From positions 75,970,473 to 76,034,472 of the forward strand of contig NC_092349.1 of NCBI RefSeq assembly GCF_963676685.1: a stretch of 64,000 bases of DNA. Direction: 5' to 3'. This document shows positions 11,088-59,058 of the stretch, one piece after another. Within the stretch, counting starts at the first letter, position 1. The number at the start of each line of letters is the position of its first letter. The DNA is from Mytilus edulis. Taxonomy: Eukaryota. The notes below the pieces were generated by a model that did no database searches, was not told the DNA's origin, and saw only the letters and a list, made by a program, of their open reading frames with translations. Made by a program: the position numbers and the translations under genes.

Positions 11088-11178
11088 CAAGCTGGATGAC
11101 TTTGCAGGTGAATTTCCAAGTCTTATCCCGCCAGAAGTTACAATTGACGAGGAAAAGTTAAAACAGTGGGAGGCTGAG
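11088..11178 (+). CDS. Short coding exon (S)KLDDFAGEFPSLIPPEVTIDEEKLKQWEAE. It enters in phase 2 and leaves in phase 0.
   Basis: Acceptor tatttttcag (AG 11086-11087) and donor GAG|GTAAGA (GT 11179-11180). The entry phase matches exon 1290-1399 and the exit phase matches exon 12313. Confidence 0.55.
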
Positions 11179-11812: not shown

Positions 11813-12312
11813 ATTTTTATTGAATTACATGTGTTGAAAGGTTGCAACACTATCTGCAAAAAACCTTTTTTTGCTTGTTACAGGCAAATATATTGTCATT
11901 ATAATCTCCAATTTCAAATCACAGCTGGAATTTCAAGCCCAACCGTAAGGCTTCATCCATGTCTGAAGACATTTGGTTTCAAAGAAAATTACTTCGAGTA
12001 CAATTGAATGGATCTCTATAATTAATGTGTTGTAAAACAGCACAGAAAAAAGCCTTAAATAACATAGACATTTAAAGAATAAAACCTTCATAAATTGAGT
12101 CTCAAAACAGCTATGTCCATTTTAATTGATTAAGTGATTTAAAATGGGGTCTGGTGTGACTTTTCAAATAGATGGGTTTTTTATTTTATTTTTTTATGTT
12201 TCTCCTTTTTTTTAATCTATGACATTGAATTAAAAACATTTGGAAAGTTGTTTATATTTACAAACCAGTCATAAATATTTATTGAAATAAATATCATTTT
12301 ACTTTTTTTCAG

Positions 12313-14208
12313 TTATATAGCAGTCACTGTGATTTACCTCCCTTGCCACCAGATGACAGTGATTTAGACAGCAATCTTTCTGTCAAAGAAACTGATGGTA
12401 AATATTACACTGCAGTCGCTGTAGACAGTAATGTGAATACAATTAACAAGTATTATGCTCCAGATTTTGACCCTTCATTTAAACTGAATGAGAAGTCTAA
12501 AACAGTACCATCTCAGTTAGTGGATATTCAACCTGATCCATTAAATGCATCTACATCTATGATGTATGAAGCAGAAAAGATAACAAGTACTCAACCTACA
12601 CTTCTGGACTACAATCCACATACAGCAGGTAGCCTAACTGGACCAAATCACTTACCACAACCTCTTAGCTATAGCCATGCTTTCTCTGGATATCAACCAA
12701 CATGGCCACATTATAGGCCAACATCACCATCTTACGAGCCTACAAGTCCTGCTATCCCAGAGTTTCAACCAACATGGCGAAGTTATAGTCCAAATAACTT
12801 ACCACAATCTTTAAGCTCTAGCCATGCTATCCCACAGTATCAACAGACATCACCAAGTTACAGTCCAACATTGCCAACCTACCAGCCAACAAGTCCCGCC
12901 TATTTTATAAAATCATCTCATTTTCTTAAGAATCTTGATGGGAATATGTCTCTCTATGATCCTATAACTAGAGCTATGAAGGAAACAGAGTTAAAATGTA
13001 ATGTTAGAGGATGGGGAGGAGGAAGAAGTGTTAGAGGAATAGGCAGAGGAAGAGGTGTTAGAGGAAGGACAGAAGAAGGTAGAGATGTAAGAGGAGGAGA
13101 AAGCTGGAGAGGCCAGGAATACACTGGTCAATGGCCAAGAGGTAATAGTCAGAGTGGCTGGAATCAGAAAGATGATATAAGAGGGATGGAAAGAAAAAAA
13201 GAGCAAAGAAGTCATAGAAGATTTGATGAACATTTAGATAAGAGGGAGTCTGATAAATCTAAATCTAGGAGTATATCACCTCCAAATAGTAGACGTAGAA
13301 GATCAGGAAAACAATTGCCTCCTTTCAGAAGAGCTAGCAGATCAAGCTCTTACAGGAGACCCAGTAGATCTAGAAGTAGATCTTACAGGAGGCCCAGTAG
13401 ATCTAGAAGTAGATCTTACAGAAGACCCAGTAGATCTAGAAGTAGATCTTACAGGAGACAAAGTAGATCTAGAAGTAGATCTTACAGGAGACCCAGTAGA
13501 TCAAGAAGTAGATCACATTACACCAGAAGAATGAGGAGATCAAGAAGTAGATTGCCAACTTATAAAAGATATAGTAGATCTAGGAGTAGATCAAGACATA
13601 ACAGAAGACATAAGCGAAGTTCTTCTAGATCATTAAGTAGGGAACGAGATAGAGATAAAGGAGAGGGTGGCAACATCAGTGCCAGTAGCCATGATAGGCA
13701 ACTTGAAAGGTCTAGAAGTAAACGATCAAGTCATGTGATATCCAGAAGAAGAAGATTTTCAGGGTCAAAAAGTAGGAGACGATCATCAAGCACAACCTCT
13801 TCAAGGTCAGGAAGGAGAAGTTCAAGATTAATGAGCAGAAGTTTATCAAGGTTAGACAGAAGTTCATCAAAGAAAAAATCGAGAAGGTCAGGAAACTTAA
13901 GTAAAGTGAAACAAGTGACTAGCAGAAGTACCTCAAGATCAATATCCAGAACAAGACAATCCAGACAATCAAGATGGTCTGAACTTTCACCTGCAAGATC
14001 CAATGAAATATGGAGTTCAAGATTGGAGATGTTGGCAAAATCTGATTATGATGGCTTTATGAAAGCAAAGAGAGATTTAGTTTCTTATGAAAGTACAAGT
14101 CCATCACCTTTTAAAGATAACATATCAAAACGTAGAACAGATGATGAGAGAAAACAGCAGGGACATCCCTACCTATCTTCTTATCAAGACATAACTGAAG
14201 GTAACTAG
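12313..14208 (+). CDS. Large exon of about 630 codons. It holds degenerate RNA polymerase II CTD-like heptads (YQPTWPH, YRPTSPS, YEPTSPA, YSPTLPT, YQPTSPA), an RGG-like block, and a long Arg/Ser (RS) domain with the tandem unit SRSRSRSYRRPSR. The product is an SR-related protein.
   Basis: The ORF in the six-frame track is 621 aa (12343-14208). It is open back to the acceptor ctttttttcag (AG 12311-12312). The stop is TAG at 14206-14208, overlapped by a possible donor AAG|GTAACT at 14201. The heptads and RS dipeptide runs were read directly. Confidence 0.75.
   Translation, partial: LYSSHCDLPPLPPDDSDLDSNLSVKETDGKYYTAVAVDSNVNTINKYYAPDFDPSFKLNEKSKTVPSQLVDIQPDPLNASTSMMYEAEKITSTQPTLLDYNPHTAGSLTGPNHLPQPLSYSHAFSGYQPTWPHYRPTSPSYEPTSPAIPEFQPTWRSYSPNNLPQSLSSSHAIPQYQQTSPSYSPTLPTYQPTSPAYFIKSSHFLKNLDGNMSLYDPITRAMKETELKCNVRGWGGGRSVRGIGRGRGVRGRTEEGRDVRGGESWRGQEYTGQWPRGNSQSGWNQKDDIRGMERKKEQRSHRRFDEHLDKRESDKSKSRSISPPNSRRRRSGKQLPPFRRASRSSSYRRPSRSRSRSYRRPSRSRSRSYRRPSRSRSRSYRRQSRSRSRSYRRPSRSRSRSHYTRRMRRSRSRLPTYKRYSRSRSRSRHNRRHKRSSSRSLSRERDRDKGEGGNISASSHDRQLERSRSKRSSHVISRRRRFSGSKSRRRSSSTTSSRSGRRSSRLMSRSLSRLDRSSSKKKSRRSGNLSKVKQVTSRSTSRSISRTRQSRQSRWSELSPARSNEIWSSRLEMLAKSDYDGFMKAKRDLVSYESTSPSPFKDNISKRRTDDERKQQGHPYLSSYQDITEGN
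13330..13545 (+). repeat. Coding minisatellite: 39-bp unit (agtagatctagaagtagatcttacaggagaccc), about 5 copies, encoding repeated SYRRPSRSRSRSY.
   Basis: Near-identical 39-mers lie in tandem inside the RS domain of the 12313-14208 exon. Confidence 0.8.
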
Positions 14209-15440: not shown

Positions 15441-16524
15441 ACATCGAGAAGTAATTGAACCTTATTTGTTTATAGTCTGACAACAAATTTACTTAGTATT
15501 GCGCAACAGCACAGTGTATTGCACAACAGCAAAAAATCTTTAATTGAATATAAATTCAATTCATATAACCAATTTCAAGTTCTTTGACTACATTTATTCA
15601 GAAACCTATAATATGTCAAATATTTAATTATAATCCAAATTCAGCCCCGTATCATGCTTGAGTATTGTGTCCATTTTTGCCGCAACTGTTCAGGGTTGGA
15701 CCTATGCAAGCATATTCAGCTGTGCTCATTGAAGCAGTTCATTCCATATTAGTGGGACTTTGAAAAAATAAGCATATTCACCTCGGGAAAAAGTATATTC
15801 ACCTCGCAAAACGTCACTTCAGTAAATGTTTTATTAGATGGGGATAGGGAAAACACTGGTAAAATAATTTTTCAGCAATAGTAAGATTATTTTGATGAAT
15901 TGCCATAAAATCTATTAATTTTATTAATTTGGTAGTCAAATATTTGCTCTTTGAGGTCTGTGTGATAGGAAAAAGAGGTAAACCCTAATCTCTAAAGCAC
16001 TAAATTATTTTGTCAAATCCTATAGATGAACTAATTGTACAATTAACTTTATTTTTAAGACACACCAAGGCACCTTTTGGAAAAGAGTAAAGTAAGTTTT
16101 TTGAATTTCATCTATGTATTTCCATTCTTAATTTTATGAGCACATTTAGCACACCAGATGATGAGTTCTTTATATACTGGATATTGAATATCCTTTTTAC
16201 TGGTATTTTAATTTCCATGAAAAGTAATTGTACTATATACATGTAATAATATTATCTGGAAACTTTAGTGCAGAAAGGTCACTTGTTGTGATGTTGTAAT
16301 ATAGTTTTATTTTGCATAATAGAACATACCCCCACAAAAATATAGATTCTTATATTTTGATTCTTGAGTTACAGTAAAAATCTAAATGCTTTTATATATT
16401 ATATAATCTGTCATTCTGGTCTAGAAATTTAAGACATAGTTTGGATGCAATGTAAAAACTTTCATTGCATCATGATTTTCTAAATTTAGATTTGGAGGCA
16501 TGAAGAAGTAGGAGAAATGCACAG

Positions 16525-16900
16525 TTGTCCTCCACCAATGGAGAAACATATCATTATAAAAGTAAGTAACAAAACGTCATGACAATAATCCTCCACCAAT
16601 GGAAAAACATATCATTATAAAAGTAAGTAACAAAACGTCATGACAATGACCAACAAATAAGTAACTTGTTAACAAGTTCAAACAATATAGCTAGCACAAA
16701 CCATGACCATTGTCAATAAAGTAAGTAACCTATCAATCTGTCCACACACTATAGCTAGCACAAACCATGACCATTGTCAATAAAGTAAGTAACCAATCAA
16801 ACTGTCCACACTTTATAGCTAGCACAATAAGGGATGCTTAAACTCTGACCATGGTCACAAAGGTAAGTAACAAGTCAACCTGTACATACACTATATAACT
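16525..16900. repeat. Two adjacent short tandem arrays (~61-62-bp units), each unit containing the motif aagtaagtaac.
   Basis: 16530-16590 is nearly identical to 16591-16650. The 16690-16870 array repeats agctagcacaa.ccatgaccattgtcaataaagtaagtaacc.atcaa.ctgtccacac. three times. Confidence 0.7.
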
Positions 16901-17965: not shown

Positions 17966-18164
17966 CTTCAATCTTTAGGAATTGACAGTAATACTATAAA
18001 ATTCCACACAGTTACTATGGAGTCTGATAAATATATATGTGTCAGAGAAAACAACCAGCTGATCATATTTAACATAGATAATCCCAAACATCCATACAGA
18101 ACACCAGTACAGGCGGACTCCTGTATCGTCAATCCCAGAAAACAACATATTGTAGCAGTAAGAT
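17966..18164 (+). CDS. CLTC: Clathrin heavy chain exon (LQSLGIDSNTIKFHTVTMESDKYICVRENNQLIIFNIDNPKHPYRTPVQADSCIVNPRKQHIVAVR, ends phase 1).
   Basis: This matches the conserved clathrin heavy chain N-terminus [31 protein letters not shown]...[21 protein letters not shown]. Acceptor ttttgtttcag (AG 17964-17965) and donor AGAT|GTGAGT (GT 18165-18166). Confidence 0.85.
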
Positions 18165-20978: not shown

Positions 20979-21128
20979 GTGGCAAAACTATACAACTATA
21001 TGATTTACATAACAAGTTGAAGATAAAGGGATACCAGATGGAGGAAGATGTCAAGTTTTGGACCTGGATTTCTGATGATGCTGTTGCTATGGTGACAGAT
21101 AAATCAGTTTATTTGTATAATCATTCAG
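20979..21128 (+). CDS. CLTC: Clathrin heavy chain exon (CGKTIQLYDLHNKLKIKGYQMEEDVKFWTWISDDAVAMVTDKSVYLYNHS, phase 1 in and phase 1 out).
   Basis: Matches [51 protein letters not shown]. Acceptor acatacag (AG 20977-20978) and donor CAG|GTAGAC (GT 21129-21130). Confidence 0.85.
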
Positions 21129-22646: not shown

Positions 22647-22759
22647 ATGGACCACAGAAACTTTATGACCATAATAGAACGTTGAACAACTGTCAGGTGG
22701 TTGGATACAAGATGGACCCTGATGGACACTGGTCAGCCTTAACATGGATATTGAAACAG
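22647..22759 (+). CDS. CLTC: Clathrin heavy chain exon (DGPQKLYDHNRTLNNCQVVGYKMDPDGHWSALTWILKQ).
   Basis: Matches [39 protein letters not shown]. Acceptor tttttacag (AG 22645-22646) and donor CAG|GTCGTA (GT 22760-22761). Phases 1 in and 0 out are consistent with the neighbouring exons. Confidence 0.85.
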
Positions 22760-23442: not shown

Positions 23443-23604
23443 GAGGATAGAGTGATTGGTTTCACACAACTGTACTCCTTACAGAGCTGCATCAAGAGAC
23501 TGTTTGACAGTCACACAGCAACCTTTACTAAGCTGACAGTAGATAATAATCCAGCTCCCTCTATGCTATTGTTATATGCCGTACGAGAGGACTATGGGGG
23601 CAAG
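23443..23604 (+). CDS. CLTC: Clathrin heavy chain exon (EDRVIGFTQLYSLQSCIKRLFDSHTATFTKLTVDNNPAPSMLLLYAVREDYGGK).
   Basis: Corresponds to [54 protein letters not shown]. Acceptor ttattattacag and donor AAG|GTAGAT. Length 162 nt, phase 0/0. Confidence 0.85.
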
Positions 23605-24458: not shown

Positions 24459-24566
24459 CTTCACATACAAGAAGTAGGTCAACCCTGTCATGGTAACCAG
24501 CCTTTTACAACCAGAATTGTTGATATCGATTTCACAGACAAAGATGACTTTCCTATTGCAATAGAG
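24459..24566 (+). CDS. CLTC: Clathrin heavy chain exon (LHIQEVGQPCHGNQPFTTRIVDIDFTDKDDFPIAIE).
   Basis: Corresponds to [38 protein letters not shown]. Acceptor aattccag and donor GAG|GTAAAA. Length 108 nt. Confidence 0.85.
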
Positions 24567-24890: not shown

Positions 24891-25058
24891 GTTAACATAA
24901 AGCATAGGGTGGCTTTCCTGATAACAAAAACAGGTTATGTACATCTGTACATGATAGAAACAGGGAGACTTATCTATACAATGAGGATAAGTGATTCTAC
25001 AGTGTTTGTTACAGCTCCTAACGAGAAAGGATTTCTGGCTGTCAATCAGGTTGGATGG
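24891..25058 (+). CDS. CLTC: Clathrin heavy chain exon (VNIKHRVAFLITKTGYVHLYMIETGRLIYTMRISDSTVFVTAPNEKGFLAVNQVGW).
   Basis: Corresponds to [58 protein letters not shown]. Acceptor gttattgtag and donor TGG|GTGAGT. Length 168 nt. Confidence 0.9.
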
Positions 25059-26836: not shown

Positions 26837-26941
26837 GTAATGTCAGTTGACATCAAAGAGGACAAGCTAAAATCATACCTACCAGAAAAGGTAACCAGTT
26901 CTCTGGGACCAGCTAAAGAACAGTTCCTGAGGCAATATCAG
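26837..26941 (+). CDS. CLTC: Clathrin heavy chain exon (VMSVDIKEDKLKSYLPEKVTSSLGPAKEQFLRQYQ). This is the last clathrin exon I can find in the window.
   Basis: Corresponds to VLSVCVEEENIIPY...LAGAEELFARKFN. Acceptor tactttaag (AG 26835-26836) and donor CAG|GTAATG (GT 26942-26943). Confidence 0.75.
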
Positions 26942-28820: not shown

Positions 28821-29139
28821 ACACATTTATTCTAAAAACAGTTGTTGGCATGACACGGGTTATGTTCTTCTCATATATGTTATGATGGTATGATACTAAA
28901 TCACTAACGGGAAGGATTGTGCCTGATGTTCATATGATGATTTCATAATCTTTCAGTCAGTTTAATTGTAGTCTGGAGCTGGCATGTCAGTTAACTGCTA
29001 GTAGTCTGTTGTTATTTATGTATTATTGTCATTTTGTTTATTTTCTTTGGTTACATCTTCTGACATCAGACTCTGACTTCTCTTGAACTGAATTTTAATG
29101 TGCGTATTGTTATGCGTTTACTTTTCTACATTGGTTAGA

Positions 29140-29400
29140 GGTATAGCGGGAGGGTTGAGATCTCACAAACATGTTTAACCCCACCGCATTTTTGCGCCTG
29201 TCCCAAGTCAGGAGCCTCTGGCCTTTGTTAGTCTTGTATATTTTTAATTTTATTTTCTTGTGTACAATTTGGAAATTAGTATGGCGTTCATTATCACTGG
29301 ACTAGTATATATTTGTTTAGGGGCCAGCTGAAGGACGCCTCCGGGTGCGGGAATTTCTCGCTACATTGAAGACCTGTTGGTGACCCTCTGCTGTTGTTTT
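29140..29400 (+). repeat. Family B interspersed repeat (gggaggtt.(a/g)gatc.c.c.aacatgtttaac....c.cat...gtcccaagtcaggagcct). A second copy lies at 59745-59960.
   Basis: Shared blocks are read at both loci in the same order. Confidence 0.7.
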
Positions 29401-30101
29401 TTATTTGGTCGGGTTGTTGTCTCTTTGACACATTTCCCATTTCCATTCTCAATTTTATTGTCAATTATCGCGATCGTAAACGATACTTTTTGGGCATACT
29501 TACCCTCCAATATACTTAAAATTTCTCAAATGATAGAACAAAATACAAATTACATAATACCTTCTGATTCTTTTCTATTTCCTTTTGATGTCTTTTTTTT
29601 GTTGTTTTGGCTGTACTTGCACCTGAAATGTACGAGTTCATATACATTGTAGTTTGTTTGAACAAATCACGTTTCTACATTTTGAAAATAACATCGAATG
29701 CAGATTTTTAAATAATTGATCTTTGACTTAACATATAACAGAAGACGATAGCGAAAAAAAAAGGTCACATTTAGTAGCGTGATCGACTTTTAAACATTGC
29801 AATGATTTCCACAGAAACAAGTATTAAAATGTGTAGTGGGTCGGTCTAAAGTTGGAGCGATATGACTGTTTTTTTATACTTTGCTCCATGTTGAAGGTTC
29901 ACTGTCACTTTCAAATGAAAAACGTAGAGCGCTGTTCCTTTGGTTTTTATTTCGTGACGTATAGTATTTTTGTGTCCTATATTGATAAACTATGTCTTAT
30001 CTTTTAGTTAAATGAACTCTGGAAAGCATAATATACGGACAAACTTTTCACATCGACTTAAAGCATTATTTATATTGTGATGCTCTATTTGTTTTACTTT
30101 T

Positions 30102-30851
30102 TTATTCCAATACAATGAAACTAGAGATTAAATTGATTAATATATAAAATGAGAAATGTGAAAACTTATATAGATAAGAACTAGACCGACTTACAAAACA
30201 TTCCTCTCGCTCATTTTCCAATAATCTCCTTAGTTCTGCTGGAATGTCTTGATCAACGGATGGTCTTTGTCTTTTCAATTGCTGTTTGGGTAACAAAGGG
30301 AGAATCCATTTTGCCTTTGATAGAACTTTTGTCCTTCTGTATGGCAGACTGTCTCTAATTTTTTCTAGATGTCCAAGAAATCCTCCCCACCACTTTTGCT
30401 CTGTATGTTCTATTTGATCAGTGAATAGACATTGCCACTGTGGTATTCTAGATTTGATCTTATTTATATCTATCTTCTCGAATTGAGGATTGATAACTTT
30501 TGGTATTCCCTTTGGTAAATTAGGTTTCCCGGAAATTAGTTGAATAATGCCATGTTCAGTTTTCCATTCGCTGTCTTGGAAAGCTTTGTACTGCATTTTC
30601 ACATTATGTGTTGCTAAATCCCGGATAAACTTATAATGCAAAGGTTTAGTATGCTTACGAATGTCGTTAAGGCTTGATGTTATCCATGAACGAATGTCAT
30701 AAATAGCCTCTATATCCTTAACGTTCGGAAGCATCTCCTTCAGACGAGGCATTGTTTCAGCATCATTCCTACGAAGAGTTTCAGCTATTCGGCTAAAAGC
30801 AGCATCCACATCTTCGTGTGTATGTCCTACTGGTAAAAATGATAAATGCAC
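30102..30851 (-). CDS. Terminal exon of a transposase-like gene: VHLSFLPVGHTHEDVDAAFSRIAETLRRND... about 249 codons to the stop. It carries the probable third catalytic acidic motif (HTHEDVD).
   Basis: The track shows an ORF at 30102-30851. On the minus strand an acceptor ttttcttttcag immediately precedes it. Phase 0 joins it to exon 32844-32960. Confidence 0.65.
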   Translation of the reverse strand: MHLSFLPVGHTHEDVDAAFSRIAETLRRNDAETMPRLKEMLPNVKDIEAIYDIRSWITSSLNDIRKHTKPLHYKFIRDLATHNVKMQYKAFQDSEWKTEHGIIQLISGKPNLPKGIPKVINPQFEKIDINKIKSRIPQWQCLFTDQIEHTEQKWWGGFLGHLEKIRDSLPYRRTKVLSKAKWILPLLPKQQLKRQRPSVDQDIPAELRRLLENEREECFVSRSSSYLYKFSHFSFYILINLISSFIVLE

Positions 30852-32149
30852 CTGAAAAGAAAATTTGCTATTTGTAACAGTAAAATAATTGGTGATTTAA
30901 ATACGCTAACCTGTAATGCTAGAAAGAACTAACATTATAAGTGTGTAAAATGCCAAATTGCTTGTATTTTAAGAGTTTACAATACCCATCGTATTGAAAG
31001 GCAGTAAACTTCAAAATGTATATGAATAAAGAGCACGTGATACGCCCGTAGTATTTTCAAAGAATTAAGTTCCAGTACTCCTAAATGTCATGTTATAAAT
31101 CTATATAAAAAAAAAAAAATTCAAGGGATGTTATATTGATAGATATAAACCAGCCTTCAAAAGTTTCATGAAATCTTTTTGAGTTGTTGTCCGAAAACTG
31201 ACTAATCCCCATCCCTTTATGACTAAAACCCCACAACTAGGAACGGTAATTGCCATAATATATAAAATCGATAGCATACTTCAATAAACTTCACCAAAGT
31301 ATCATGAAAAATGTTCAAAGCATTTGACAGTTATTATCCGAAAACACTGGAAAATACCCCTTTTAAATGGATAAAATTCCTATAACTTAATTGAACACGT
31401 AAAATCTAAAATTCATAAAAAAAGAAAGAGACTCACGTAGACAGATCTATATAAATAATGTTTGATGCAGATTGTTATTATCCGACATGTTGACAACGGA
31501 CGGACGGACTAACGTTCAGCGGTATACTATAATACGTTTTCTAAACAGATGTACATGTACTTATACAAACTGTGAGTCAACTAGCCTATTTTCAAGATGT
31601 GTGTGTTAGCTCTCTGGTTAGAAAAAAGTTCCACCTAATTCATTAAGATATAACTTCTATTCAATATAAGTTTCACTGGGAAAACATTTCTAACTAAAAT
31701 CGTAGAAGTATTTTACTTCCATGCTAAAACCTTATATTACAGGCATCATAACTTACATGATCAACCAAAAGTCACACAAAAAATCCCCAAAAGGGGGTCT
31801 TGTAAATGAATGTTTTACAGACAGACGTACCATTAGCATGTATAAACTATAATCAATGATACATACATGTGTGCAATTTCAGAGGTAATTATATGGATAG
31901 GCAATAATTAATGTGTCAATTGATCATATATTTTCATAGTCTGGTAAGATACAATGTATATGTATATACTGTGCACTGTTCTTTTTATCTACTTGATGTG
32001 AATGACCCCATGTGGTTAGCATCTTTATCTGTGGAATTATTGTTGACACAAGATAATTAATCCTTATTAAGATGTCACAGATTATATGTTAGAGAAGAAA
32101 TATATACAAACCATTAATATAGTATAACAAGAGGCTACGTTTTTCAAGT

Positions 32150-32400: not shown

Positions 32401-32843
32401 AAATCATTGTATTTATTTCTCGAGTAATAATAACACATAAGAATTCAGTGCTGATGAATTTTAATGTACTATATTTTCAAGGATTTGAGGGATCACAGGA
32501 CCTTATAATTATCCAATACCCACCCCCTCCCCCGGTTGGATCTGCCTATACATTATGTTTAACACTTCCCACAGTTTTAACCCTTAAACCAAACCGTTTT
32601 AAATCTTGAAATAACCACACCGTTTAAATCTAGCAATAGCTAATACTTATTTCTTGAAGTGAAGAGGAAGTCCTCAACAAATTTGCCGAGCGGAGGTAAG
32701 AGGAATATATATATTTTTTTTGCGTAAAACTATTTTCACCTTTAAGGGTGCACACGCTCATATATATACCCACACAACCACCGGGTAACTGTTCCTTTCA
32801 ATAAAGTAACAAGAATCGCAATGATTTGTAAATTGCAACTTAC

Positions 32844-32960
32844 CTCATTGAAAATGCGTTGGTGAACAAGGAGTTCACAAAAACCCAATACATATCGATT
32901 TTTATTTTCCCGCCAACAATTATCTGCTTGCAAGTACAAAATAGGCGGTAACTTGTTACC
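32844..32960 (-). CDS. Transposase-like exon GNKLPPILYLQADNCWRENKNRYVLGFCELLVHQRIFNE. It contains the probable second catalytic Asp (ADNC).
   Basis: Minus-strand acceptor ttcttgtag and donor GAG|GTAAGT (acttac at 32838-32843 on the plus strand). Length 117 nt, phase 0/0, compatible with both neighbouring exons. Confidence 0.55.
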
Positions 32961-36601: not shown

Positions 36602-37194
36602 TTATACCTTTTTGACTTTAAGATTGGGTAAATATTTTTTCCACATTCCGTAGAAGGCTGATGGCATTAAAAATTCTTCTGATCTTTCCTTCATATCTTC
36701 TTTATATCTTATATAAATCATGCACTGTCGTGTCCGATAAGGTAGTAAGAGTGTATTACAGTCGGGCATCCTGTCAACGTAATATGTAGCGTATTCTTCC
36801 AGCCAGTTTATAGCTTGGAGTGATTTTATGCTGGCACAGTAGTGTCTCTCCGATACAGAAAAACGTGCTCCTCCTATGAACTTTTTTCTATTAGAGTAAT
36901 AGAAATTTTTGTGAATTCCAAGCATTCTCATCAATGCCTTTGGACAAACGACATGTCCGTTCTGTATACGGAAGTATGGTGTATACTCCATATTAGTTTC
37001 AGAGAACTTTTTTAATAACCACTGGTTGCGACCATTTATTGTCTTTGACCAGAATTCCAATCGCATGTTTTTAACCTCCACAAGAGAGAATTTCTTCGTA
37101 CAAACTTTACTACAACAGCGCCTACATGACTTTAAATCCTTCTGAATACTTGCTACTTTTGTATGACGAGCAAGGAGACGACTTCTCTCTGGAT
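36602..37194 (-). CDS. Terminal exon of a second minus-strand gene: (H)PERSRLLARHTKVASIQKDLKSCRRCCSKVCTKKFSLVEVKNMRLEFWSKTINGRNQWLLKKFSETNMEYTPYFRIQNGHVVCPKALMRMLGIHKNFYY...KVKKV, running to the stop. It has a Cys-cluster (CRRCCSKVC) domain.
   Basis: The track shows an ORF at 36602-37081. The frame is open upstream to the minus-strand acceptor catttttgtag (ctacaa at 37195-37200 on the plus strand). The phase-1 entry matches the donor of exon 38509-39439. Confidence 0.55.
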
Positions 37195-37954
37195 CTACAA
37201 AAATGTGATATGATAGTTTTGTTAATAAACTAAAACACTAATTTTATGTATTTATTTGTTTTTATCTATTTTAAGCTCTCTTTGTTATTTTTCCCGCTTT
37301 ACTTAAAGCTATTTTTCCCGCTTTACTTAAAGCTATTTTTCCCGCTTTACTTAAAGCTATTTGATCATCAAACGTAATCAATCAATCTTATGTATTTGAA
37401 CATGCAATTAACCGTAAGTGTTTCAACCACATGTGATTTAATCAACTGACTAAAGAAAAGATTAACGAACAATATGTAACATATGAATACTGATAAAGAA
37501 CAATTGACCTTCACAAAATATCTCATGAACCTTTAAGACCATCAATTAACGTTAGCCATAATGAGCACTCATTGAAACATTATTCTCAAATCATGACAGA
37601 TTTTAATAGGATAGTACAAATCATTGCTCTTCTTTTAAAACACGAAAACAATACGCAATAAATTAAATGCGTCCGATGCATTTTTCTAGATTAACCTCCA
37701 CCAAGAACTCACAAAGCTTCGATGCATAAAAACGATACAGTTGAATAGCTATTTAATAAAAAAAAATCACTTAAAAATAATAGCCAAAATCCTTCAAATC
37801 CTTCAAACGCCAACTTTGCCTAAGGTAGTTGAAACGTTTCTAATTATGCTAGTAAACACCAAATTTTATTAAGGAAATTCACAACCATTTAATGTACTGA
37901 AATAAGTGTATTATCGTTTGTCGAGCAAAGGCAAGTCATATTTCTCTTTAGAAT

Positions 37955-38400: not shown

Positions 38401-38508
38401 GTCATTCTATATTACTTTCTAACTTATGGATAGAGAGTTGTCTCATTGGCACTCATACCACATCTTTCTATCTCTATTATGATAACAAACAAAAAAAAAA
38501 ACACTTAC

Positions 38509-39439
38509 GTGATTGCGATTCAAGCAAAGGTTTTGTTTCTTCTTGGGGAAATGTAGCTCTAACATCATGATACATTTCTGTCATACCAATTGATGCATCT
38601 GAATACACTGAAACATTTTCATTTATACTGCTTTCTGAGCGAGAACTAGCAAGATATGAAGTTCCTTCAAAACCAGAAGATAGTGACAGTATTTCGGTTG
38701 ATGCTAGATGAAGTGTTTCCGTATCATCTTCGTTGAATTCATAAGGCGACGAAGGGCAAATATTACATCTCAGTTTTGTGCTAATTTCTGAACCCATATA
38801 ACAAGAACTTTCATGTTCACTGCTGGAAATTCCGAACGTTGGTTCTAACTCGATTAAAGTTCTATTTACGGAATAATCAAACAGTCCAAAGTCATAATTA
38901 TCATCTGATATGTCTGCCACCCCACTAATCACTGGTATTTTTCTTGGTGTACTGGTCATTAAAGCTTTGTTTGGCGATTTTAATGTTGTGTCATAATTTA
39001 CTGCATACTCTTCAAATGACTCTAATGTTTTTGTTTCTAGAATCAACGACAGGCTGGATTCAGCAGTGTTGCTTAAGTCTCCAAAACAATATGAATCAGA
39101 CTGTCCAAGATTATGTAAATCAGAATCTCCAAGATTATACGAATCCCCTAAATTATGTAGCTCCGACAATGAATCTCCTAAATTTACCCCGTGTTTTTCG
39201 GTATAATTTAAACACACTACTGAGTTTTCCGCTGATTCTAAAAAATGAGAACCGACAAGATTAATTGAATTTACAAATGTATATTCATCAGTAGCGCTCG
39301 ATGCATCAGCGAAAACAGTCACATCGTTCAATCGATTATTATGAGCATAAACTAAAAGTGACAATGGATATTTGTAGCCGTATTTTATTCGCTGAACTCC
39401 GGCAGTTTGTGTTGTGTTTCTGTTTTCATGTATACCCAC
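38509..39439 (-). CDS. Exon encoding a Ser/Asp/Asn-rich low-complexity protein segment (…NLGDSYNLGDSDLHNLGQSDSY…SSEHESSCYMGSEISTKLRCNICPSSPYEF…PLLESQS). The 5' boundary is undefined.
   Basis: The track shows an ORF at 38477-39439 on the minus strand (alternative GTG start, no clear ATG). A canonical minus-strand donor TCAC|GTAAGT (acttac at 38502-38507 on the plus strand) gives a phase-1 end that joins exon 36602-37194 in frame. Confidence 0.5.
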
Positions 39440-41271
39440 GATCTCTTATACTCGTATATATATTCATACGGTTAAAATCAGAAAGCTGATGAAGCCTTGT
39501 AACGTATGAATATTGAATAGACTAAGTGATAAAATTAATATATATATACTGCATACATATAGTGTAAACGTTTTGAAACTGTATTGCATGACTGTTTTAC
39601 TATTGATAGTTTTGAATTCTTTACGTTTTACTTTACGTAAATGAGTGTAGGGCAAAAAAAAAAGGGGGGGGGGGTCCTCTGCGCTACAATGTATCAATCA
39701 AAATTTATCTTCTTCAAAATTCAATAATGAATATAAGCTATGAGGGAAATCAGATGGATTTAAATTAATTTTTGTTGTCAACGGCCTCACACAAAAAAAA
39801 TCAATCAAATTTGGGATCAGCATATATTTTTTAGGAAAACAAATCATAATCCCCTCCCCTTTGAAGTTTAATGGTCGTTCTCTAATTTTGGTGCTATTTT
39901 CACATTTCCTGACCGGTGTGAGAAAAAAAAATTCTCCTCACTATTGAAAAATCTGTTCTCGGCAAATGATTGGTTGAAAAGTTAATTGTGACGTTTTCTT
40001 CTTAATTTAACATACACAATTCAATTGAATGTCTTATTTAAGTCTCATCCCTCAACAAGTACATGTAAATAAATACATTGTAACTTGAACTAACACTAAA
40101 TAAATTGAGAGCCATTATCAGAGACTATAACATGCTTAGATATAATACACTAAACAATATGAAATAAAATACTATTTACACATGTACATACGGAGAGTGA
40201 AATCACTTTATATAATAATATCCATTATTCAGATGACGATAGGTCATAAGTTGGAAATAAGTACCGACTGTATACCATAGCAAAAAAGAAATTAAAAAAC
40301 AAACAACTACCAACTAATTTAAAACACTACATGGAAAATACGGAAATGGGGGTTAGCAATACGAGCGCATTAAAAAAAATCTTATCGCATGTGCTGGAAT
40401 ATAGAAAAAAAAGTAACTGTAGGTCTGAATAAATTACCTATTTTTTTTTTTTTTTATTTATTTAGAGTTGTCGTCTTGCTTTATTTATACAATATTATAT
40501 AGGCTTATTAAACAGTTGTTACAGTATAGCTAAAACAAATAGCAAAGAAACAATCACCACTGCTTAAGACGTAATCCCACTGAATGTGTGGATCGTAGCT
40601 TTTAAGTTATGCAATGTCCAGATAAAATGTTACAGAATCTGCGCCCCGTGGTGAAAATTGCCGTAAAAGTAATGTATGTATACTAAGTATTCCGATCTAT
40701 AACGAAAAATCTCACCCGCGATCACATCCTCAAAGCAAGAAAACACTTACATGTAATGCGATTAGCTCTCCAATTATAACATTTAGGAGGATTAATACGT
40801 TACTATTAACAGGATTATATTAAAGTCTGTTTTGTGAAAATTCGTAACTTGATAAACTTGTCTAAGTGGTTTTTTATTAGATGTCCGCTCCTGACCCCAT
40901 ACTTTTGAAATTTATCATTTGATATCAGTCCTGTGACTGAAAACAAGCTCAGCGTCACAGGCCGTAGGAAATTGTATATGGAACGTCGAAAATAGGATAG
41001 GAAGGTACAAACATGTACAGTTCCCATGAAATTTTTTTTGTATATATAAAAAAACAAAGGAAACATTTTAGTCTTGCTACCCACGTGTAACTAGCAAATC
41101 GATGTTTATCCTCAAGAATACCAGATTAACCTTTATTTGATTTATTAGGTTAATAAGGTCCACTAATTTTCCCTTATCTACTAAATATTAAAGCATACCC
41201 AAAGAAAAGTGATATATACTGTATGATCTGTCTGCATTGAATATGTTAAATTCATTAAAAAGGAGTGAAAG

Positions 41272-46302: not shown

Positions 46303-46741
46303 TATACTTGTCTGTTATTTTGACATCGCCAAACATGTTTTATCTCTAGTTGCTGTTTTTGTTTAATGACCATTTAAGAAAAATAATGTGCAAGTCTTAG
46401 TTTTGAACAAACTTGGGGATCGAACACACGATTACAAGGATCACTTCCAGAGGCAAGTTCTCCGAGGATGTTATTTTTTTTTATTGCATATACGGGTACT
46501 GGAAACTATAACCATATCAACTTCAGAAATATTACTTTTACATCAAATGTTCAAACACTTGCTCATTAAGTGAACAACATATTTTTTTTTATATATTTTG
46601 AACTCGAAAAATTACAGCGCCCCCTTACGGTCATTGTCCTCCTGAAGTGATCAAAGTGATCGTAATATAACGACTGGATTATTCGGGTTATTTGAATTGT
46701 TGATTTTCCATTCTAAAGTGATAGCATTTGTTTTCTTTTAG

Positions 46742-47510
46742 GAGACGCATTAAAGGTACATATTCAGAACTTAGTTATACCTGCCGATGATCGCTGTTTT
46801 CGAAATCTGGACACGAAACATGCTCACTGTCTAAAACAATTTTATGAAAATCAGCAAATGTGTCATACAATTCTCATTGGCAACATTGTCGGCGATGTTA
46901 CTACTGATAAAGGTAATTTGTCAAAGTTTCTTCAAGAACCTGGCAAAGTAGCAGTTGAAACTTTAGGTGGTAATCATACAAGACATGCGCTACAATGTTT
47001 ATTCGCAAGCCAAACGAAGCCTATTAGCATGGTAACATGTCGGTTATACAACAAATTACCAGACGAGTTGGCGCTACAATTAGGGTATGAACACAATGCA
47101 TCTAATACATTAGGAAAACCGACAAGTTTTGTTGATTTAGTAAAGATGTTTCGAAAAGAAGCAACAAAAATAGTAGGAGATACAGATATTAGCTGCATGC
47201 AAAGTAGTGAAGTAAAGCAATGGAAAGATATTATATGTACTATTCTAGGGATGGACAGAAAGGCGGAAGAATTTCATAACAAGTACAAGATTGTTTTAAA
47301 AATTGCAAAATCAAAGGATTCCGTATGGAGAAAATTTTTAGAATTCTGTTCCGCTTTCGAAATGAATGAAATTAGAAATACTCCAAGAGGATCCTTAAAG
47401 ATTACACAGTTGAGAGATTTTTCAATGCTTTCTAGTGATAACCAAATACATATTTTGGAAGAAACTTTACAGACAAAAGACTGGAGAGTATTTAAGAGAG
47501 AAGTAGAAAG
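46742..47510 (+). CDS. Large exon (768 nt, about 256 codons) carrying a ParB/sulfiredoxin-like motif (…CHTILIGNIVGDVTTDKGNLSKFLQEPGKVAVETLGGNHTRHALQCLF…). It ends either at the stop TAA 47512-47514 or at the overlapping donor AAAG|GTAAAT.
   Basis: The track shows an ORF at 46858-47514 (218 aa). The frame is open back to acceptor gttttcttttag (AG 46740-46741) in phase 1, matching the previous exon. A long ORF in AT-rich sequence is unlikely by chance. The GGxHxRxA pattern resembles the sulfiredoxin FGGCHRYAA motif and the ParB GERRxRA motif. Confidence 0.65.
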
Positions 47511-48404
47511 GTAAATAAATGCAAATCATGTCGTGTGTACTGGAAAAAAAATTCACTGCACTACATGATTTTCTTAAAACTTGATTTTATATTTGTAACT
47601 TGGTTTGTAAAATATGCTTCATAAAAAAGGCATTCAGCATACATTTACGTTATATCGGGAATATTATTAAAAAAAAAAGAACCGTGGTTTTCGTAATTTA
47701 ATTCACAGTTTAAGGAATAATTGGAGCATTTCATTAACCTTGAGGAATCTCATTTGTAATATTATGATATTAAAAATGAGTTATGAAAAAAGGAATGTAC
47801 ACACCAATTTTTAAAAATTTATCACCTATAAAATTGTTCACGAAAACAAAACACAAAAAAAAACCTAATAAACACCAAGACAAGAATAAAAAAAATGTAC
47901 AGGCAATGTTAATGAGAGACAGCAACCAAACGACACAAATAAACTAAAATTATCTAGAGACAACACATAGCCTTAAAAATATAGGCGGTCTCCATGCACT
48001 TTATCAAGCTCTTAATTTTCCATTATATACATCTTGTGAATAAGTTATACAAAGACTACCAAAGATCTTTCGTTTAATCTAAATCCCCCCCAAAAATGTA
48101 TTTATGAAATGTCAATCGCAAAGTCATCTCGTCAACCTTCTTGATAGGTCGGGTATTTGGTGGTTGATGTAGACTGCAGCCTTGTAATTTTGTAAACTTA
48201 TGTTTTTTTTTTTTGTTTTTAATGTATAATTGGGCTAAAGTGCAATTTCAAAGATCTAATCGATATTTATGGTAATAAGCCCACCTTTCATTTAAAAAAA
48301 AACCGGTATATTGAAATATTACAGAAAAGAGCTGACACTGTACGTACATGTATATCAGTAATGAAGTTACCGACTTAGATAATATCACTGGATTTATTTT
48401 GTAG

Positions 48405-48482: not shown

Positions 48483-48956
48483 GTATGTTAGCATTTTAAA
48501 CGAACATACAGAATAAGTTTCATGCATCCATTTATGACAATATTTTGTTCAGTTTTATCATTTCACGGGATTTCCAAATATCATTGATTTATATGATTGC
48601 GTACTTTAATGTTTGAACATCATTTGGTGCATTTCCGAACGTGCATCTAAATTATAAATTCCTACTGGCGGCACAAAACTGCCATTTTGATTTATTTTAG
48701 TTTACGATATTATTTCAAAACTGTCCTTTTGTTAATAACTGTTAAGAGATATTTTTTTAAATTTTAAGGTTTTAATTTGTTGATGAAACTTTTCAATATT
48801 ATATACCTGCAGACTCTCAATATTCTGTTGAAAGCTGGTTTAACTGTAGTAATAAGAGAATAGTTCACTCCTCCTCCATTACAAGTATTTAAAATGTGCC
48901 TTTGCTTATTTGAATTAACCCATTAAATTATTGAGCATTTCATTATATTTATCTAG

Positions 48957-49260
48957 TGAGTGTAAAATAAAACAACTGACTGCCGAAAGAGAAAAATTGG
49001 CAACTACTTCATCAACATTAAAATCAAAGTTGACAGAAGAACAAAAGAAAACAGAGGACTTCGAGACATTGTTGAATCAAGAAAGGAAAAAATGCAGTGC
49101 ACTTGAAACTAAATTACAGCAACTGAGGAGATCAGAGAATGAACTCAAAGTTGTCTTGGATAAGCAGATTGATAAAAATGAAAAATCTAGTAATCTGCTA
49201 CAAGTTGAAAAAACAAAATACCAAACCCTGGAAGAAATGTACAATAAATTGTTAAGTTGA
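48957..49260 (+). CDS. Coiled-coil exon (…ECKIKQLTAEREKLATTSSTLKSKLTEEQKKTEDFETLLNQERKKCSALETKLQQLRRSENELKVVLDKQIDKNEKSSNLLQVEKTKYQTLEEMYNKLLS). The 3' end is ambiguous: stop TGA at 49258-49260 versus the weak donor AA|GTTGAG.
   Basis: The track shows an ORF at 48931-49260 (109 aa). Acceptor tttatctag (AG 48955-48956). It has heptad-like charged/hydrophobic periodicity. Confidence 0.5.
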
Positions 49261-49609
49261 GTACTCTGTTTTTTAGGGCTGTAATAGCCCTTTTGACAAA
49301 ACGCTTATTATTTTGTTGATGATATATGGAATAATATTCTGCAACAGACTTACGATAGTTATCAGATCACATTAATGATGCATAAAGAGTTGTTCAATTG
49401 ACCATGCAGTCTGATGATCTTGATCTTGCATTACATAATTAATCAAACATATTTACCAGCTTAGAATAAATACCAGAGACAACAAAGAAAAATAATTTAT
49501 ACAAGAAACATCTTACATGTTATGTACTTGTATTTAAACATAATAAGAAAATATTCCTTATTCAAATGTTCTCAATACGCAAACTCTGAAAACAATGATG
49601 TTTTTACAG

Positions 49610-49711
49610 GAAGAAGCAAAAGCTTGTTTAGAAAAGAAAGTTCAGGAATTTGAAGAATCTAGTAGATGTCAACATATTGAAAAACACAAAAGCCAAGTAG
49701 ACAACTCTGTT
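49610..49711 (+). CDS. Exon EEAKACLEKKVQEFEESSRCQHIEKHKSQVDNSV. Alternatively a first coding exon starting at ATGATG 49595.
   Basis: Acceptor gtttttacag (AG 49608-49609) and donor GTT|GTAAGT (49712-49717). Phase 0/0 joins the downstream Tudor exons. Confidence 0.5.
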
Positions 49712-50117
49712 GTAAGTTTTATAACCTACGTATATATTTACCTTACAATTAAAAAAAAATGTCCTTTAATTTTTGTTAATTGTTTGTTCAACAAATGATA
49801 TTCACTTTGTTGGTCTGAGTGAACGTAATTAACTTAAAATCGGGAAGATGTGTTGAGTTTCGTACGTAATTCTTCTTTAGAAGTAAGTTACAAAATAATG
49901 TTGACCCCTGTGTTCATAATTTCTCATTTTTTAAATTTGGTCTGATTCTGTTATTCATATGCATTTGCTTTGCAAATGAATGATTTTCATTGGATAATTT
50001 TACAGTTTTTCCTTTTTATTATATTTTATTATAAATTTTAGTTCCAACGTGTGTATCGTCACGTTTGTTTCATCAACTATTATCTATATCAGTCTATATC
50101 AAGTTTACGTTAAGTTT

Positions 50118-51221: not shown

Positions 51222-51309
51222 GAGTTTGAAGTTGGTACGTCTGTTGAAGCATTTTGGTATCCAGACAAGTGTTGGTATACTGCAAAAATACTAATGAAGA
51301 CAGGAAAAG
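51222..51309 (+). CDS. Tudor-like domain exon, first part: EFEVGTSVEAFWYPDKCWYTAKILMKTGK(G).
   Basis: Acceptor ttatgttgtag (AG 51220-51221) and donor AAAG|GTAAGT (GT 51310-51311). The pattern GxxVxAxWxxDxxWYxAxI is typical of Tudor, SMN and 53BP1-type barrels. Confidence 0.65.
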
Positions 51310-52347
51310 GTAAGTACTGTTTTATGAAAACAAAATTTGGAGGGCAAATGTTATCAGATATAATATCAGACTGTACAAAGATAATTCTGTCGTATAAAGA
51401 AATAAAAGTGGAAATGTTTTGTACTCAATCAACACATGTACATATAAGTTGAAAAATAATCATATTAGTAAAAGTTTTCAATTCATGGTAGCTATCCTGA
51501 TGAAACAATTCAACAAAAAAGACGACGTTTATTTTTACAGAGGAGCACTTGTACTAAACTATCGTTTCGGTATATATTTATTTAATAAACTTTTTTAGTT
51601 TATGAACTTTGTTTTAAATCCATTTGCAAAGAGAACGCCAAGTATTAAATTTACGGTAATACAGAATTTTTTCAAAAGTACTACTTTTAGGCGTTGCATC
51701 GTCCTGAACATGCTTGTACTATTTCCCATTGGACGTCATTTTTTAGGCTTGTCACACTTTTTTTACGTTTTATAATGTTTTCTTTAAAATGAGCTAACTG
51801 CGAATGAGTTTTTTTTTTATAAAAAGGACTTCATAATGGTCGAGAAGATAATAATCCAAAGACTCAATATGCTGATTTTTTTATGAAAGAAACAGTAGTT
51901 GCACCAGTAAACCGGTTAATCAGTTGATCAGTTAGGGTCAAACATTCAGTCAAACATTAAGTCACATTAAGTCTAGGTCAAAGTTAAGGTTAGGTCAAGC
52001 ATATTTGACTTCACAAATCTAATACTTAATTTAACAAGGACCAGAGCAGAAGATATTGGCATGTAGTCATGTATTCTAAAACCAGGATTTATGACACTTA
52101 ATCTATCTGAAAAAGTACCGATAAAAGCATTACATGCTATATAATATATAATCACACATACTCCTGTATTTATCAGTAATTTATATGGCCAGGGGTACTA
52201 TTTTGAACCGACAAAAATACATCTTATTAATCGAAGTCAGTTACTCTTTACTAGTATCATTATAGTTTCAACATTCAAGTAAAATAGTCCACAATTTATT
52301 ATTCATTAAGACTCAGATCTTTTTAAAAAAAAATGATTTTTTTACAG

Positions 52348-57605: not shown

Positions 57606-58319
57606 TTCACATATAATAAACATAAATGTATTTAATTTTACAAGAAGAATTTTACAACTTAGAGACCAGACCTATGTATTAACATGTTCAGTTTCACATC
57701 TTATATACATGGTATTTGATTTTACAGGGACAATTTTACAACTTGACACCCGATCTATGTGACATGTTGGGTTTATCATACAATAGAATACATGACATTC
57801 TAAAGTTACAAGGACTTTATTCCTTAGGTAAGAATAACACATTTTATTATCCTGAAAATGGAATATTGTGAATCAAATTCATGACATAAAATTCCTTTGA
57901 TATCCTTGGATAAAACAAAGAAAACTAGAACAGACAGCTTAAATAATTCCTCATCTCACAACTAAGAGCATTCATAGCTTACACACCATTACAAGTTAAA
58001 TTACCCCTAGCACTGGTTTGATCATGATTTGCTGCATGTCAAGTACATACAGAGCATATATCTGTTCATGATAGATTCTTTTTTAATTATTTTCGTGTCT
58101 TATATTCATACCTACTATCTACTTCAGGTTTCTTGTGTTTTATATTTGTAAAATTTTCTATTTGAAAATAGTCCACTGTAGGTTTGGACAAACATTCAGT
58201 TCAGCCTATCCTGTTATGTGAGTCCTCTGCACATTTTCATATAGAATTAAAGCAAACAATATTAGCTCTTAAAAGTATATATATTAAAACCCAGTTAAGG
58301 TGTTGACCCAGCTGTCCAA

Positions 58320-58735: not shown

Positions 58736-59058
58736 GTATCAGTGTGCAGTTACTAGCAGAAAGAGTCCTTGCATCAATCTTAATCTTTATATTCTTAATA
58801 AATGAATATGCAATTATAGACAAGACTATGATCCCAGATGTCATGATTACCCATGATGCATCTGATCATGCTGTCGACTTCAGAATCCTGTACAAAGGAA
58901 AATCTCAAAATGTGAAACTTGTAAAGAAAGAACTTGTTATTGTTTATAAGTGGTTGTTACAAATGAAAAAGGAACACTCAAATCTCATCAGGGATTTAGA
59001 ACTAGGGAACAGTGTGGAAGATTTCTTACGTAATTTGTATTTTGCATGTAAAATTTAA
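58736..59058 (+). CDS. Candidate terminal exon (..SVQLLAERVLASILIFIFLINEYAIIDKTMIPDVMITHDASDHAVDFRILYKGKSQNVKLVKKELVIVYKWLLQMKKEHSNLIRDLELGNSVEDFLRNLYFACKI then a stop) of an unidentified plus-strand gene.
   Basis: The track shows an ORF at 58744-59058. A good acceptor tatatctttttgcag immediately precedes it. Candidate upstream exons at 55397-55437 and 56091-56170 are not phase-compatible, so the linkage is unresolved. Confidence 0.25.

Follow-up and report, generated by a model that had tools for sequence, protein, structure and literature searches.

A short array of heptads resembling RNA polymerase II's C-terminal domain within a mosaic gene of Mytilus

Does a mussel protein that is not a polymerase imitate the C-terminal domain (CTD) that RNA polymerase II (Pol II) carries, or does its likeness to the CTD have another source? 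The question is raised by a 64,000-nucleotide stretch of Mytilus edulis DNA (contig NC_092349.1, positions 75,970,473 to 76,034,472; hereafter the window), an AT-rich (~32% GC) eukaryotic sequence with many introns. A first-pass annotation had picked out heptads in this stretch close to the CTD consensus YSPTSPS and had proposed that the protein carrying them mimics the CTD or competes for its binding factors. The heptads are housed in a large exon, the fifth of its gene (exon 5; 12313-14200, + strand, 629 codons), which occupies most of an open frame of 640 codons (12286-14205, +) in DNA of 32-37% GC. The reading preferred here, with confidence that is about even, makes the heptads a low-complexity module of CTD-like type, in a region that is putatively disordered and nuclear, which does not reproduce the Pol II CTD faithfully.

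The heptad array and its likeness to the CTD

Six heptads share a single 7-residue register and are arranged as two triplets with 28 residues between them. The first triplet (12691-12753, +) consists of YQPTWPH (H1, 12691-12711), YRPTSPS (H2, 12712-12732) and YEPTSPA (H3, 12733-12753), and the second (12838-12900, +) of YQQTSPS (H4, 12838-12858), YSPTLPT (H5, 12859-12879) and YQPTSPA (H6, 12880-12900). The five heptads quoted in the first-pass annotation are all present, at 12691-12753 and 12859-12900, but its inventory overlooked YQQTSPS and two degenerate heptads, FQPTWRS and YSPNNLP (12763-12804, +), which can be read directly from the sequence and are out of register by +3. Followed in the 7-residue register from 12649, the region reads HLPQPLS, YSHAFSG, YQPTWPH, YRPTSPS, YEPTSPA, IPEFQPT, WRSYSPN, NLPQSLS, SSHAIPQ, YQQTSPS, YSPTLPT and YQPTSPA.

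Self-alignment of the DNA and of the protein resolves the array into two units of a 147-nt (49 aa) tandem duplication, with ~72-75% nucleotide identity between them. Repeat unit 1 (12643-12789, +) is 49 aa long, or seven times seven residues, and is made of PNHLPQPLSYSHAFSG, the heptads YQPTWPH YRPTSPS YEPTSPA and IPEFQPTWRSYS. Repeat unit 2 (12790-12900, +) is truncated to 37 aa and is made of PNNLPQSLSSSHAIPQ followed by YQQTSPS YSPTLPT YQPTSPA. The Y-x-P-T-S-P-x repeat would have grown in place, through 21-nt and then 147-nt duplications. The earlier annotation had allowed that the region might prove to be a generic tract with no periodicity beyond its five units; compared with shuffled sequence, periodicity and motif count exceed chance. 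Five matches to Y.PT.P were observed in a 100-aa region for which none of 200,000 composition-preserving shuffles produced at least three, and the identity at a lag of seven residues (22/78) was reached in none of 100,000 shuffles (maximum 20). Additionally, the N-terminal 799 aa of the protein have 12 [ST]P sites, and half of these (6) sit within the 70-aa heptad block, which would be the main proline-directed Ser/Thr-Pro cluster of the N-terminal half and would combine it with evenly spaced tyrosines.

The resemblance to the Pol II CTD is close in some positions and poor in others. In a phmmer search of the PDB, the alignment with RPB1 CTDs covers ~80 residues ungapped at E 4e-22, although compositional bias is heavy. 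Occupancy of the consensus in the window is complete for Y1, T4 and P6 (6/6 each), high for P3 (5/6) and S5 (4/6) and low for S7 (2/6) and S2 (1/6); the residues that replace Ser at position 2 are Q, R, E, Q and Q, and at position 5 they are W and L. As in RPB1, the units are tandem and seven residues long, carry Y1, P3, T4, S5 and P6 and run three in succession in each cluster. The di-heptad spacing of Y1 is present inside each triplet. Unlike the RPB1 CTD, the mussel heptads lie outside RPB1, number six good units in two triplets, have Ser2 once and have W or L for Ser5 in two units; the block is also fast-evolving, whereas metazoan CTDs are highly conserved. No RPB1 domain was found in the projected host protein with Pfam or with phmmer against the PDB. 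For the Pfam CTD repeat (PF05001) the block in the window reaches 14.5 bits, under the cut-off of 20.3, and the whole exon has no PF05001 match; the corresponding block of M. galloprovincialis, at 20.9 bits, is a borderline pass. Ser5-P6-directed enzymes and Tyr1-dependent contacts use CTD positions that differ from those of Ser2 phosphorylation and of the readers of phosphorylated Ser2 (Ser2P). The heptad block appears to retain the requirements of the former, and to lack the Ser2 that Ser2P readers, or Ser2 phosphorylation by CTD kinases, would need. An origin in the linker of RPB1 and its first CTD repeats was considered and set aside; human GYSPAWSP...YEPRSP resembles mussel GYQPTWPH...YEPTSP, but the two align with only 2.2 bits.

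CTD-like heptads outside RPB1 had been described in the first-pass annotation as rare. They are indeed uncommon, but they are recurrent: among 40 heptad-only matches, 33 match the CTD repeat, and 8 carry RPB1 catalytic domains against 32 that do not. The other domains in this set are MATH, VIT/VWA, ACE, Sina-RING, BAH and RT-RNaseH, or there are none. Mytilus itself has MATH-domain 'RPB1-like' proteins (P0001 from M. trossulus, P0004 from M. edulis and P0005, LOC143080694, from M. galloprovincialis) with ~25 heptads. Like the array in exon 5, these belong to non-polymerase proteins of the same genus and consist of YxPTSPx units that include YQPTSPS and YRPTS variants; they differ in that their ~25 units are near-perfect YSPTSPS, placed C-terminal to a MATH domain and without an RS (arginine/serine) domain. 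A common origin of the two arrays was tried at the DNA level with one of the MATH-protein genes and set aside as uninformative, the identity (70-77% over 44-107 nt) being explicable by shared motif and codon usage. CTD-like heptad arrays outside RPB1 arise repeatedly, twice in Mytilus alone.

Several minor observations attach to these other arrays. P0005 corresponds to 28864-29733 of its locus (L003), and further CTD-like arrays occur in the predicted proteins P0002, P0003, P0007, P0009, P0022 and P0038. A sponge protein and a VWA protein from a chytrid belong to the non-RPB1 set, in which YQPTSPS is a recurrent variant. Some of the non-RPB1 heptad proteins may be gene-model fusions.

The known orthologues of the host protein are all from the genus. 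An exhaustive HMMER scan with exon 5 against 1.84 billion cluster representatives returned one true relative, P0011 (E 1.6e-244, 79% identity), and 38 other matches that involve the heptads only. P0011 corresponds to XP_076109027.1, which is annotated as 'uncharacterized protein LOC143077023' in M. galloprovincialis (1391 aa), and its 90% cluster includes CAG2240014.1 of M. edulis (2016 aa), which was auto-named 'CLTC'; the named members are both Mytilus. With one cluster among 1.84e9 representatives, the mosaic protein described below is known only from Mytilus. A word-indexed protein search gave heptad-level matches only and missed the 79-90% identical Mytilus proteins, and its negatives were not used. 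Automated names such as 'RPB1-like' and 'CLTC' can mislead.

Conservation of the heptads in orthologues had been set beforehand as a test, and the outcome is divided. H3 is YEPTSPA in the window and in the M. galloprovincialis and M. edulis models. At four other positions the two models agree with each other and differ from the window, with CQPIWPH for the YQPTWPH of H1, YRPTSPF for the YRPTSPS of H2, YQPTSPS for the YQQTSPS of H4 and YSPTSPS for the YSPTLPT of H5. At H6 all three differ (YQPTSPA in the window, FEPTSFA in M. galloprovincialis and FELTSPV in M. edulis). Four heptads are kept, but H1 and H6 are degenerate and the number of repeat units varies: the window has 2, and M. galloprovincialis and M. 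edulis have a partial third unit in addition. The additional partial unit in the two models is 25 aa long and falls in the region of repeat unit 2, and a 14-aa insertion directly follows the block. Between orthologues, 6 of 30 core positions (1, 3, 4, 5 and 6) and 3 of 12 variable positions (2 and 7) have changed, with no preferential conservation of the motif. The ratio of nonsynonymous to synonymous divergence (dN/dS) of the block, window against M. galloprovincialis, is 0.66 and indistinguishable from neutral (p 0.47), in a comparison of 88 codons that has little power for weak constraint.

The host gene and its modules

The model of the M. galloprovincialis locus (L001) was rebuilt exactly, with 18 coding exons and all introns GT-AG. 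The window is colinear with this model from just past exon 1, and when the model is projected onto it 17 exons result (908-59058), with all splice sites canonical and an open reading frame (ORF) intact at 1317 codons. Exon 5 has a canonical phase-0 acceptor (12312/12313, tttttcag/TTA) and a canonical phase-1 donor (14200/14201, GAAG/gtaac). It is found in both M. galloprovincialis and the window with its frame open despite numerous indels (net 60 codons), and its dN/dS of 0.55 against M. galloprovincialis (p 1e-4 against neutrality) reveals purifying selection. At the nucleotide level it is 78-83% conserved, no better than several adjoining introns (84-98%).

Two further low-complexity blocks follow the heptads in exon 5. 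The RG-rich block (13003-13143, +), part of which is a 27-nt tandem repeat, had been called RGG-like; an RG-rich block is present, but with a single RGG among 8 RG. The RS domain, expected at ~250 residues, was found as described, with 238 aa (13264-13977, +), 64% R+S and 75 RS/SR dipeptides, and it contains a 33-nt tandem repeat of 5.1 copies (SRSRSRSYRRP, 13348-13514). Its length and content exceed the limits set for the C-terminal RS domain of SR (serine/arginine-rich) proteins (>=50 aa, >40% RS), but it is internal, not C-terminal, in the predicted full-length protein. Classical SR (SRSF) proteins have one or two N-terminal RNA recognition motifs (RRMs), and Pfam detected none either in exon 5 or in the projected protein as a whole. 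The idea of a free-standing 'SR-type protein' is not supported by this structure, in which two annotations splice exon 5 to clathrin-propeller exons and no RRM is found; the 'SR-type protein' is predicted to form the disordered N-terminal half of a mosaic protein. Proteins of the RS-domain ('SR-related') type that lack an RRM include SRRM1/2, SON and PNISR. These likewise have a long RS domain in a large disordered region flanked by low-complexity repeats, but there is no sequence relationship to the mussel protein, in which RRM, PWI and other RNA-processing domains were not found and which is fused to a clathrin-type propeller.

The propeller is encoded by exons 8-14 (17966-18164, 20979-21128, 22647-22759, 23443-23604, 24459-24566, 24891-25058 and 26837-26941, +), a paralogue of the seven-bladed N-terminal beta-propeller of clathrin heavy chain. 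It aligns to residues 11-341 of the clathrin terminal domain with phmmer against the PDB (E 5.5e-87) and scores 44.8 bits for Pfam Clathrin_propel, over the cut-off of 21.3. The individual exon matches are 36-56% identical to human CLTC, or ~45% overall by estimate, and a dN/dS of 0.21 (window against M. galloprovincialis, p 5.5e-7 against neutrality) was obtained. Of the residues that we take to form the clathrin box, T87, Q89, K96 and K98 are kept in the alignment and F91 is replaced by Y. The clathrin linker, CHCR leg and trimerisation domain were not found, as full-length human CLTC matched by tblastn at residues 13-324 only, the PDB phmmer alignment stops at ~341 and the propeller repeat is the only clathrin family that Pfam detects in the projected protein. 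Since no clathrin match extends past the N-terminal domain, formation of triskelia would be impossible. No clathrin-box or W-box motifs, which would be candidate ligands for the protein's own propeller, were found in the N-terminal half. On the predicted gene model, the propeller is a diverged clathrin heavy-chain paralogue fused to a disordered region of putatively nuclear type.

Near the other end of the gene, exon 3 (1290-1399, +) encodes 28 aa that correspond to histone H3 residues 32-59 and cover the K36 context and the alpha-N helix. The match is supported by phmmer against the PDB (histone H3, E 3e-8) and by tblastn with H3 (22/26 identical, E 1e-10), with 22/25 residues identical over H3 35-59. 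A histone fold (alpha1-alpha3) was not found, the Pfam Histone score of 15.1 bits against a cut-off of 26.4 indicating a fragment only. Known H3-tail mimics in non-histone proteins are convergent motifs of 4-6 residues (PMC6028506, PMC11703355). Like these mimics, exon 3 places H3 sequence in a non-histone protein, and here it is near-verbatim; unlike the convergent mimics, the similarity implies descent from an H3 gene fragment as its probable source.

Other H3-like pieces lie nearby. The M. edulis protein P0047 has three more H3-tail-like pieces upstream, at residues 394-652, which are colinear with H3 (~H3 3-30, 12-43 and 20-35), the last of which includes LATKAARKSAPETGGV, identical to H3 at 15/16 positions as read from the alignment. 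In M. galloprovincialis, L001 3041-3148 and 8053-8307 encode three copies of the H3 6-17-like 'TAGKSTGGSAP' as well as 'QSARKSTGGKCPRIQ', and these sit in the last exons of an upstream PARP/VIT/VWA/ubiquitin gene. It may be that this upstream gene and the mosaic gene have a history in common that derives from H3, or that they belong to one transcription unit.

Between the H3 fragment and the heptads, exon 5 contains the 13-mer NKYYAPDFDPSFK (12445-12483, +), which is identical at 11/13 positions to residues 8-20 of human YJU2 (PDB 6zym_u). The match amounts to ~30 bits ungapped (E 0.62 against the PDB, E 0.023 by tblastn in the 64-kb window and E 1.3e-4 one-to-one), and a 30-bit match is expected by chance proteome-wide. 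An hmmscan of the 50-aa segment that holds the 13-mer gave no Pfam match to the Yju2 family, no zinc-binding CxxC...CxxC module was found and no cysteines follow the motif. By comparison with the N-terminal motif of YJU2/CCDC94 and YJU2B/CCDC130 (NKYYPPDF[DN]P), the mussel motif is internal, not N-terminal, and comes without the zinc-binding domain. The 13-mer is identical in three Mytilus sequences (window, M. galloprovincialis and M. edulis), as is most of the surrounding sequence. The resemblance to Yju2/CCDC94 without its zinc finger, as reported from the first pass, is therefore correct as to the 11/13 match and the missing zinc module, but homology to YJU2 is an unproven and statistically insecure lead, given the PDB E value and the lack of a Pfam family. 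The clear H3 homology in the same gene raises the prior for NKYYAPDFDPSFK as a captured fragment.

Competing explanations for the heptads

The predicted order of the host protein is an acidic stretch, the H3 fragment, the Yju2-like motif, the heptads, the RG block, the RS domain, the propeller and a C-terminal region. RS domains send proteins to speckles after phosphorylation by SRPK/CLK, and the phosphorylated CTD partitions with SR-rich condensates. On the preferred reading, the heptads together with the RG and RS blocks would offer multivalent, phosphorylation-tunable contacts, and these contacts would place the protein in speckles or in transcription/splicing condensates, with the single heptads interchangeable and weakly constrained. 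CTD-like repeats combined with RG/RS sequence would most plausibly be a route to RS/CTD-type nuclear assemblies. We infer the disorder, the nuclear location, the phosphorylation and the condensate role that this account calls on. Three points weigh against it. The Ser5 codons of the heptads are of both types (TCN and AGY), which is compatible with selection for Ser. Between the paralogous units of the window, 1/12 of the Y1/P3/T4/P6 positions have changed and 6/9 of positions 2/5/7, which hints at motif-specific constraint beyond a generic 'sticker' model, in a comparison that is biased by the way in which the heptads were recognised. Lastly, exon 5 and the propeller are joined on the strength of predicted gene models, together with conservation of frame and splice sites in two lineages.

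The account proposed in the first pass, in which the array is a true CTD mimic or decoy whose heptads would serve as substrates of CTD kinases and as ligands of CTD readers or phosphatases, appears improbable. Such a protein would compete with Pol II or be recruited to the transcription machinery, and its RS domain would add splicing-factor contacts. Three consecutive heptads in each cluster provide the di-heptad spacing required by many CTD readers, Y1, P3, T4 and P6 are nearly always retained, S5-P6 is present in 4/6, and the long ungapped alignment to RPB1 CTDs and the M. galloprovincialis score just over the Pfam cut-off point in the same direction. Additionally, the H3 fragment with its K36 context means that 'substrate-like' pieces recur in one protein. 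There is also precedent, as the Nrd1-interaction motifs (NIMs) of Trf4 and Sen1 bind the CTD-interaction domain (CID) of Nrd1 by CTD mimicry (PMC4186968, PMC7110113). The concept of a non-polymerase protein offering a CTD-like peptide to a CTD reader is the same, but the NIMs are single short acidic/aromatic motifs, not heptads, with demonstrated binding, whereas the mussel block is known from sequence resemblance. Conversely, the replacement of Ser2 by Q, R or E in 5/6 heptads would leave Ser2P readers and Ser2 kinases almost without a target, 3+3 heptads compare with 26-52 in real CTDs, and the window block falls under the Pfam threshold. In the sister species Y1, T4 or P6 has been lost from two of the six, and neither the block dN/dS nor the fate of the core positions between orthologues reveals preferential retention. 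At the other extreme, slippage or unequal crossing-over may have produced a P/S/T/Y tract that drifts neutrally in a tolerant disordered region and resembles YSPTSPS by chance, an account that is unlikely but deserves to be taken seriously. A block dN/dS inseparable from 1, a unit number that varies between lineages, flanking indels of 14 and 25 aa, an exon no better conserved than several introns and the scatter of similar arrays over unrelated predicted proteins would all be expected from it. It does not fit well with an exon that is under purifying selection overall and keeps its frame open through indels, with the retention of Y-x-P-T-S-P across lineages in 4/6 heptads or with a 7-residue register held over 84 residues, and the 88-codon test on which it draws is underpowered for weak constraint.

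A different kind of doubt concerns the gene model. Exons 2-5 may be a separate RS-protein gene, or an isoform that stops past the exon-5 donor, in which case the propeller junction would be a prediction error and the 'SR-type protein' description would hold; we regard this as having a slim chance. In both lineages the frame meets a stop two codons beyond the donor (window, GGT AAC TAG; M. galloprovincialis, GGT AAC TAA), so that an RS-only truncated isoform is possible, and retention of intron 5 would end the frame at 14206-14208. The 5' part of the M. edulis model is plainly an over-merger with the neighbouring PARP/VIT/VWA/ubiquitin gene, and the sole Logan contig retrieved (SRR29152239, 99.3% identical to the window), considered as a transcript, proved to be unspliced genomic DNA. 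Against an artefact, exon 5 and the propeller are joined by two independent annotation pipelines, exons 6 and 7 retain their splice sites and frame in both lineages with a 6-nt length difference that stays in frame, and no alternative first exon was found for the propeller part. A one-exon-gene reading was rejected: exon 5 spliced directly to exon 8 is out of phase, whereas passage through exons 6 and 7 keeps the phase. Finally, the whole protein could be imagined as a 'multi-mimic' hub or decoy that displays H3 pieces (K27 and K36 contexts), heptads, RG and RS sequence and the Yju2-like motif on a peptide-binding propeller. It would titrate or co-localise chromatin, transcription and splicing enzymes and would have been built in Mytilus by capture of gene fragments, a speculative proposal to which we give very little credence.

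Should the heptads prove to be functional CTD look-alikes, they would constitute a natural experiment on CTD positions in which Ser2 is dispensed with and Y1/P3/T4/S5/P6 are kept, and they would show how host proteins might tap the Pol II reader network. Part of the system is known already, as the gene is in RefSeq as uncharacterised, and disordered regions with RS domains and sporadic CTD-like arrays are known kinds. A search of the literature on non-RPB1 CTD-like heptads combined with RS domains found no paper on this gene or architecture. More unusual than the heptads is the mosaic, in one mussel gene, of H3 pieces, CTD-like repeats, RG/RS sequence and a clathrin terminal domain in which the clathrin-box residues are largely kept.

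Remaining exons, repeats and introns

The other exons of the projected model, all on the + strand, carry less recognisable sequence. Exon 2 (908-1111), located by tblastn of P0011/P0047 and by projection with its AG/GT sites kept, encodes the acidic D/E-rich stretch (NLNPDSEGSS...DSDEEDKND). Exon 4 (11088-11178, SKLDDFAGEFPSLIPPEVTIDEEKLKQWEAE) and exon 7 (16490-16561, IWRHEEVGEMHSCPPPMEKHIIIK) are supported by tblastn and the projected model, and exon 6 (16060-16091) is 32 nt long; its counterpart in M. galloprovincialis has 38 nt, and the frame is preserved. Exons 15-18 (55394-55433, 56085-56173, 57728-57827 and 58736-59055, with the stop codon to 59058) encode a C-terminal region with no recognisable domain; the final exon is 100% identical to that of M. 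edulis P0047.

Two repeats lie around and after exon 7. Exon 7 has its 3' end and donor doubled by a 61-bp repeat in two copies (16528-16647, 98% identity), and use of the second donor would shift the frame. This repeat is followed by a 64-bp repeat of 2.3 copies (16682-16827), which matches many overlapping positions over ~1.5 kb of the M. galloprovincialis intron (L001 21391-22907), and this suggests an expanded tandem array there.

Intron 14 (26942-55393) spans 28.4 kb in the window against 1.8 kb in M. galloprovincialis. The additional DNA contains transposon-like ORFs, with DUF7869 at 30105-30896 (-) and 32745-32960 (-), and long ORFs without a Pfam match at 36605-37237 (-), 38480-39445 (-) and 46717-47511 (+). 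On the + strand there are also coiled-coil-type ORFs (48919-49257 and 49547-49795) and a 76-aa ORF (51222-51449), none of which is above the Pfam threshold.

Synonymous divergence (dS) from M. galloprovincialis is itself strongly mosaic along the gene: exons 2-4 have 0.04, exon 5 and the propeller reach 0.15-0.21 and the C-terminal exons have 0.05. Introns vary in a similar manner, with a divergence (K) between the window and M. galloprovincialis of 0.008 in intron 17 and ~0.17 in introns 11 and 16. This mosaic divergence suggests introgression or old haplotypes in the Mytilus species complex.

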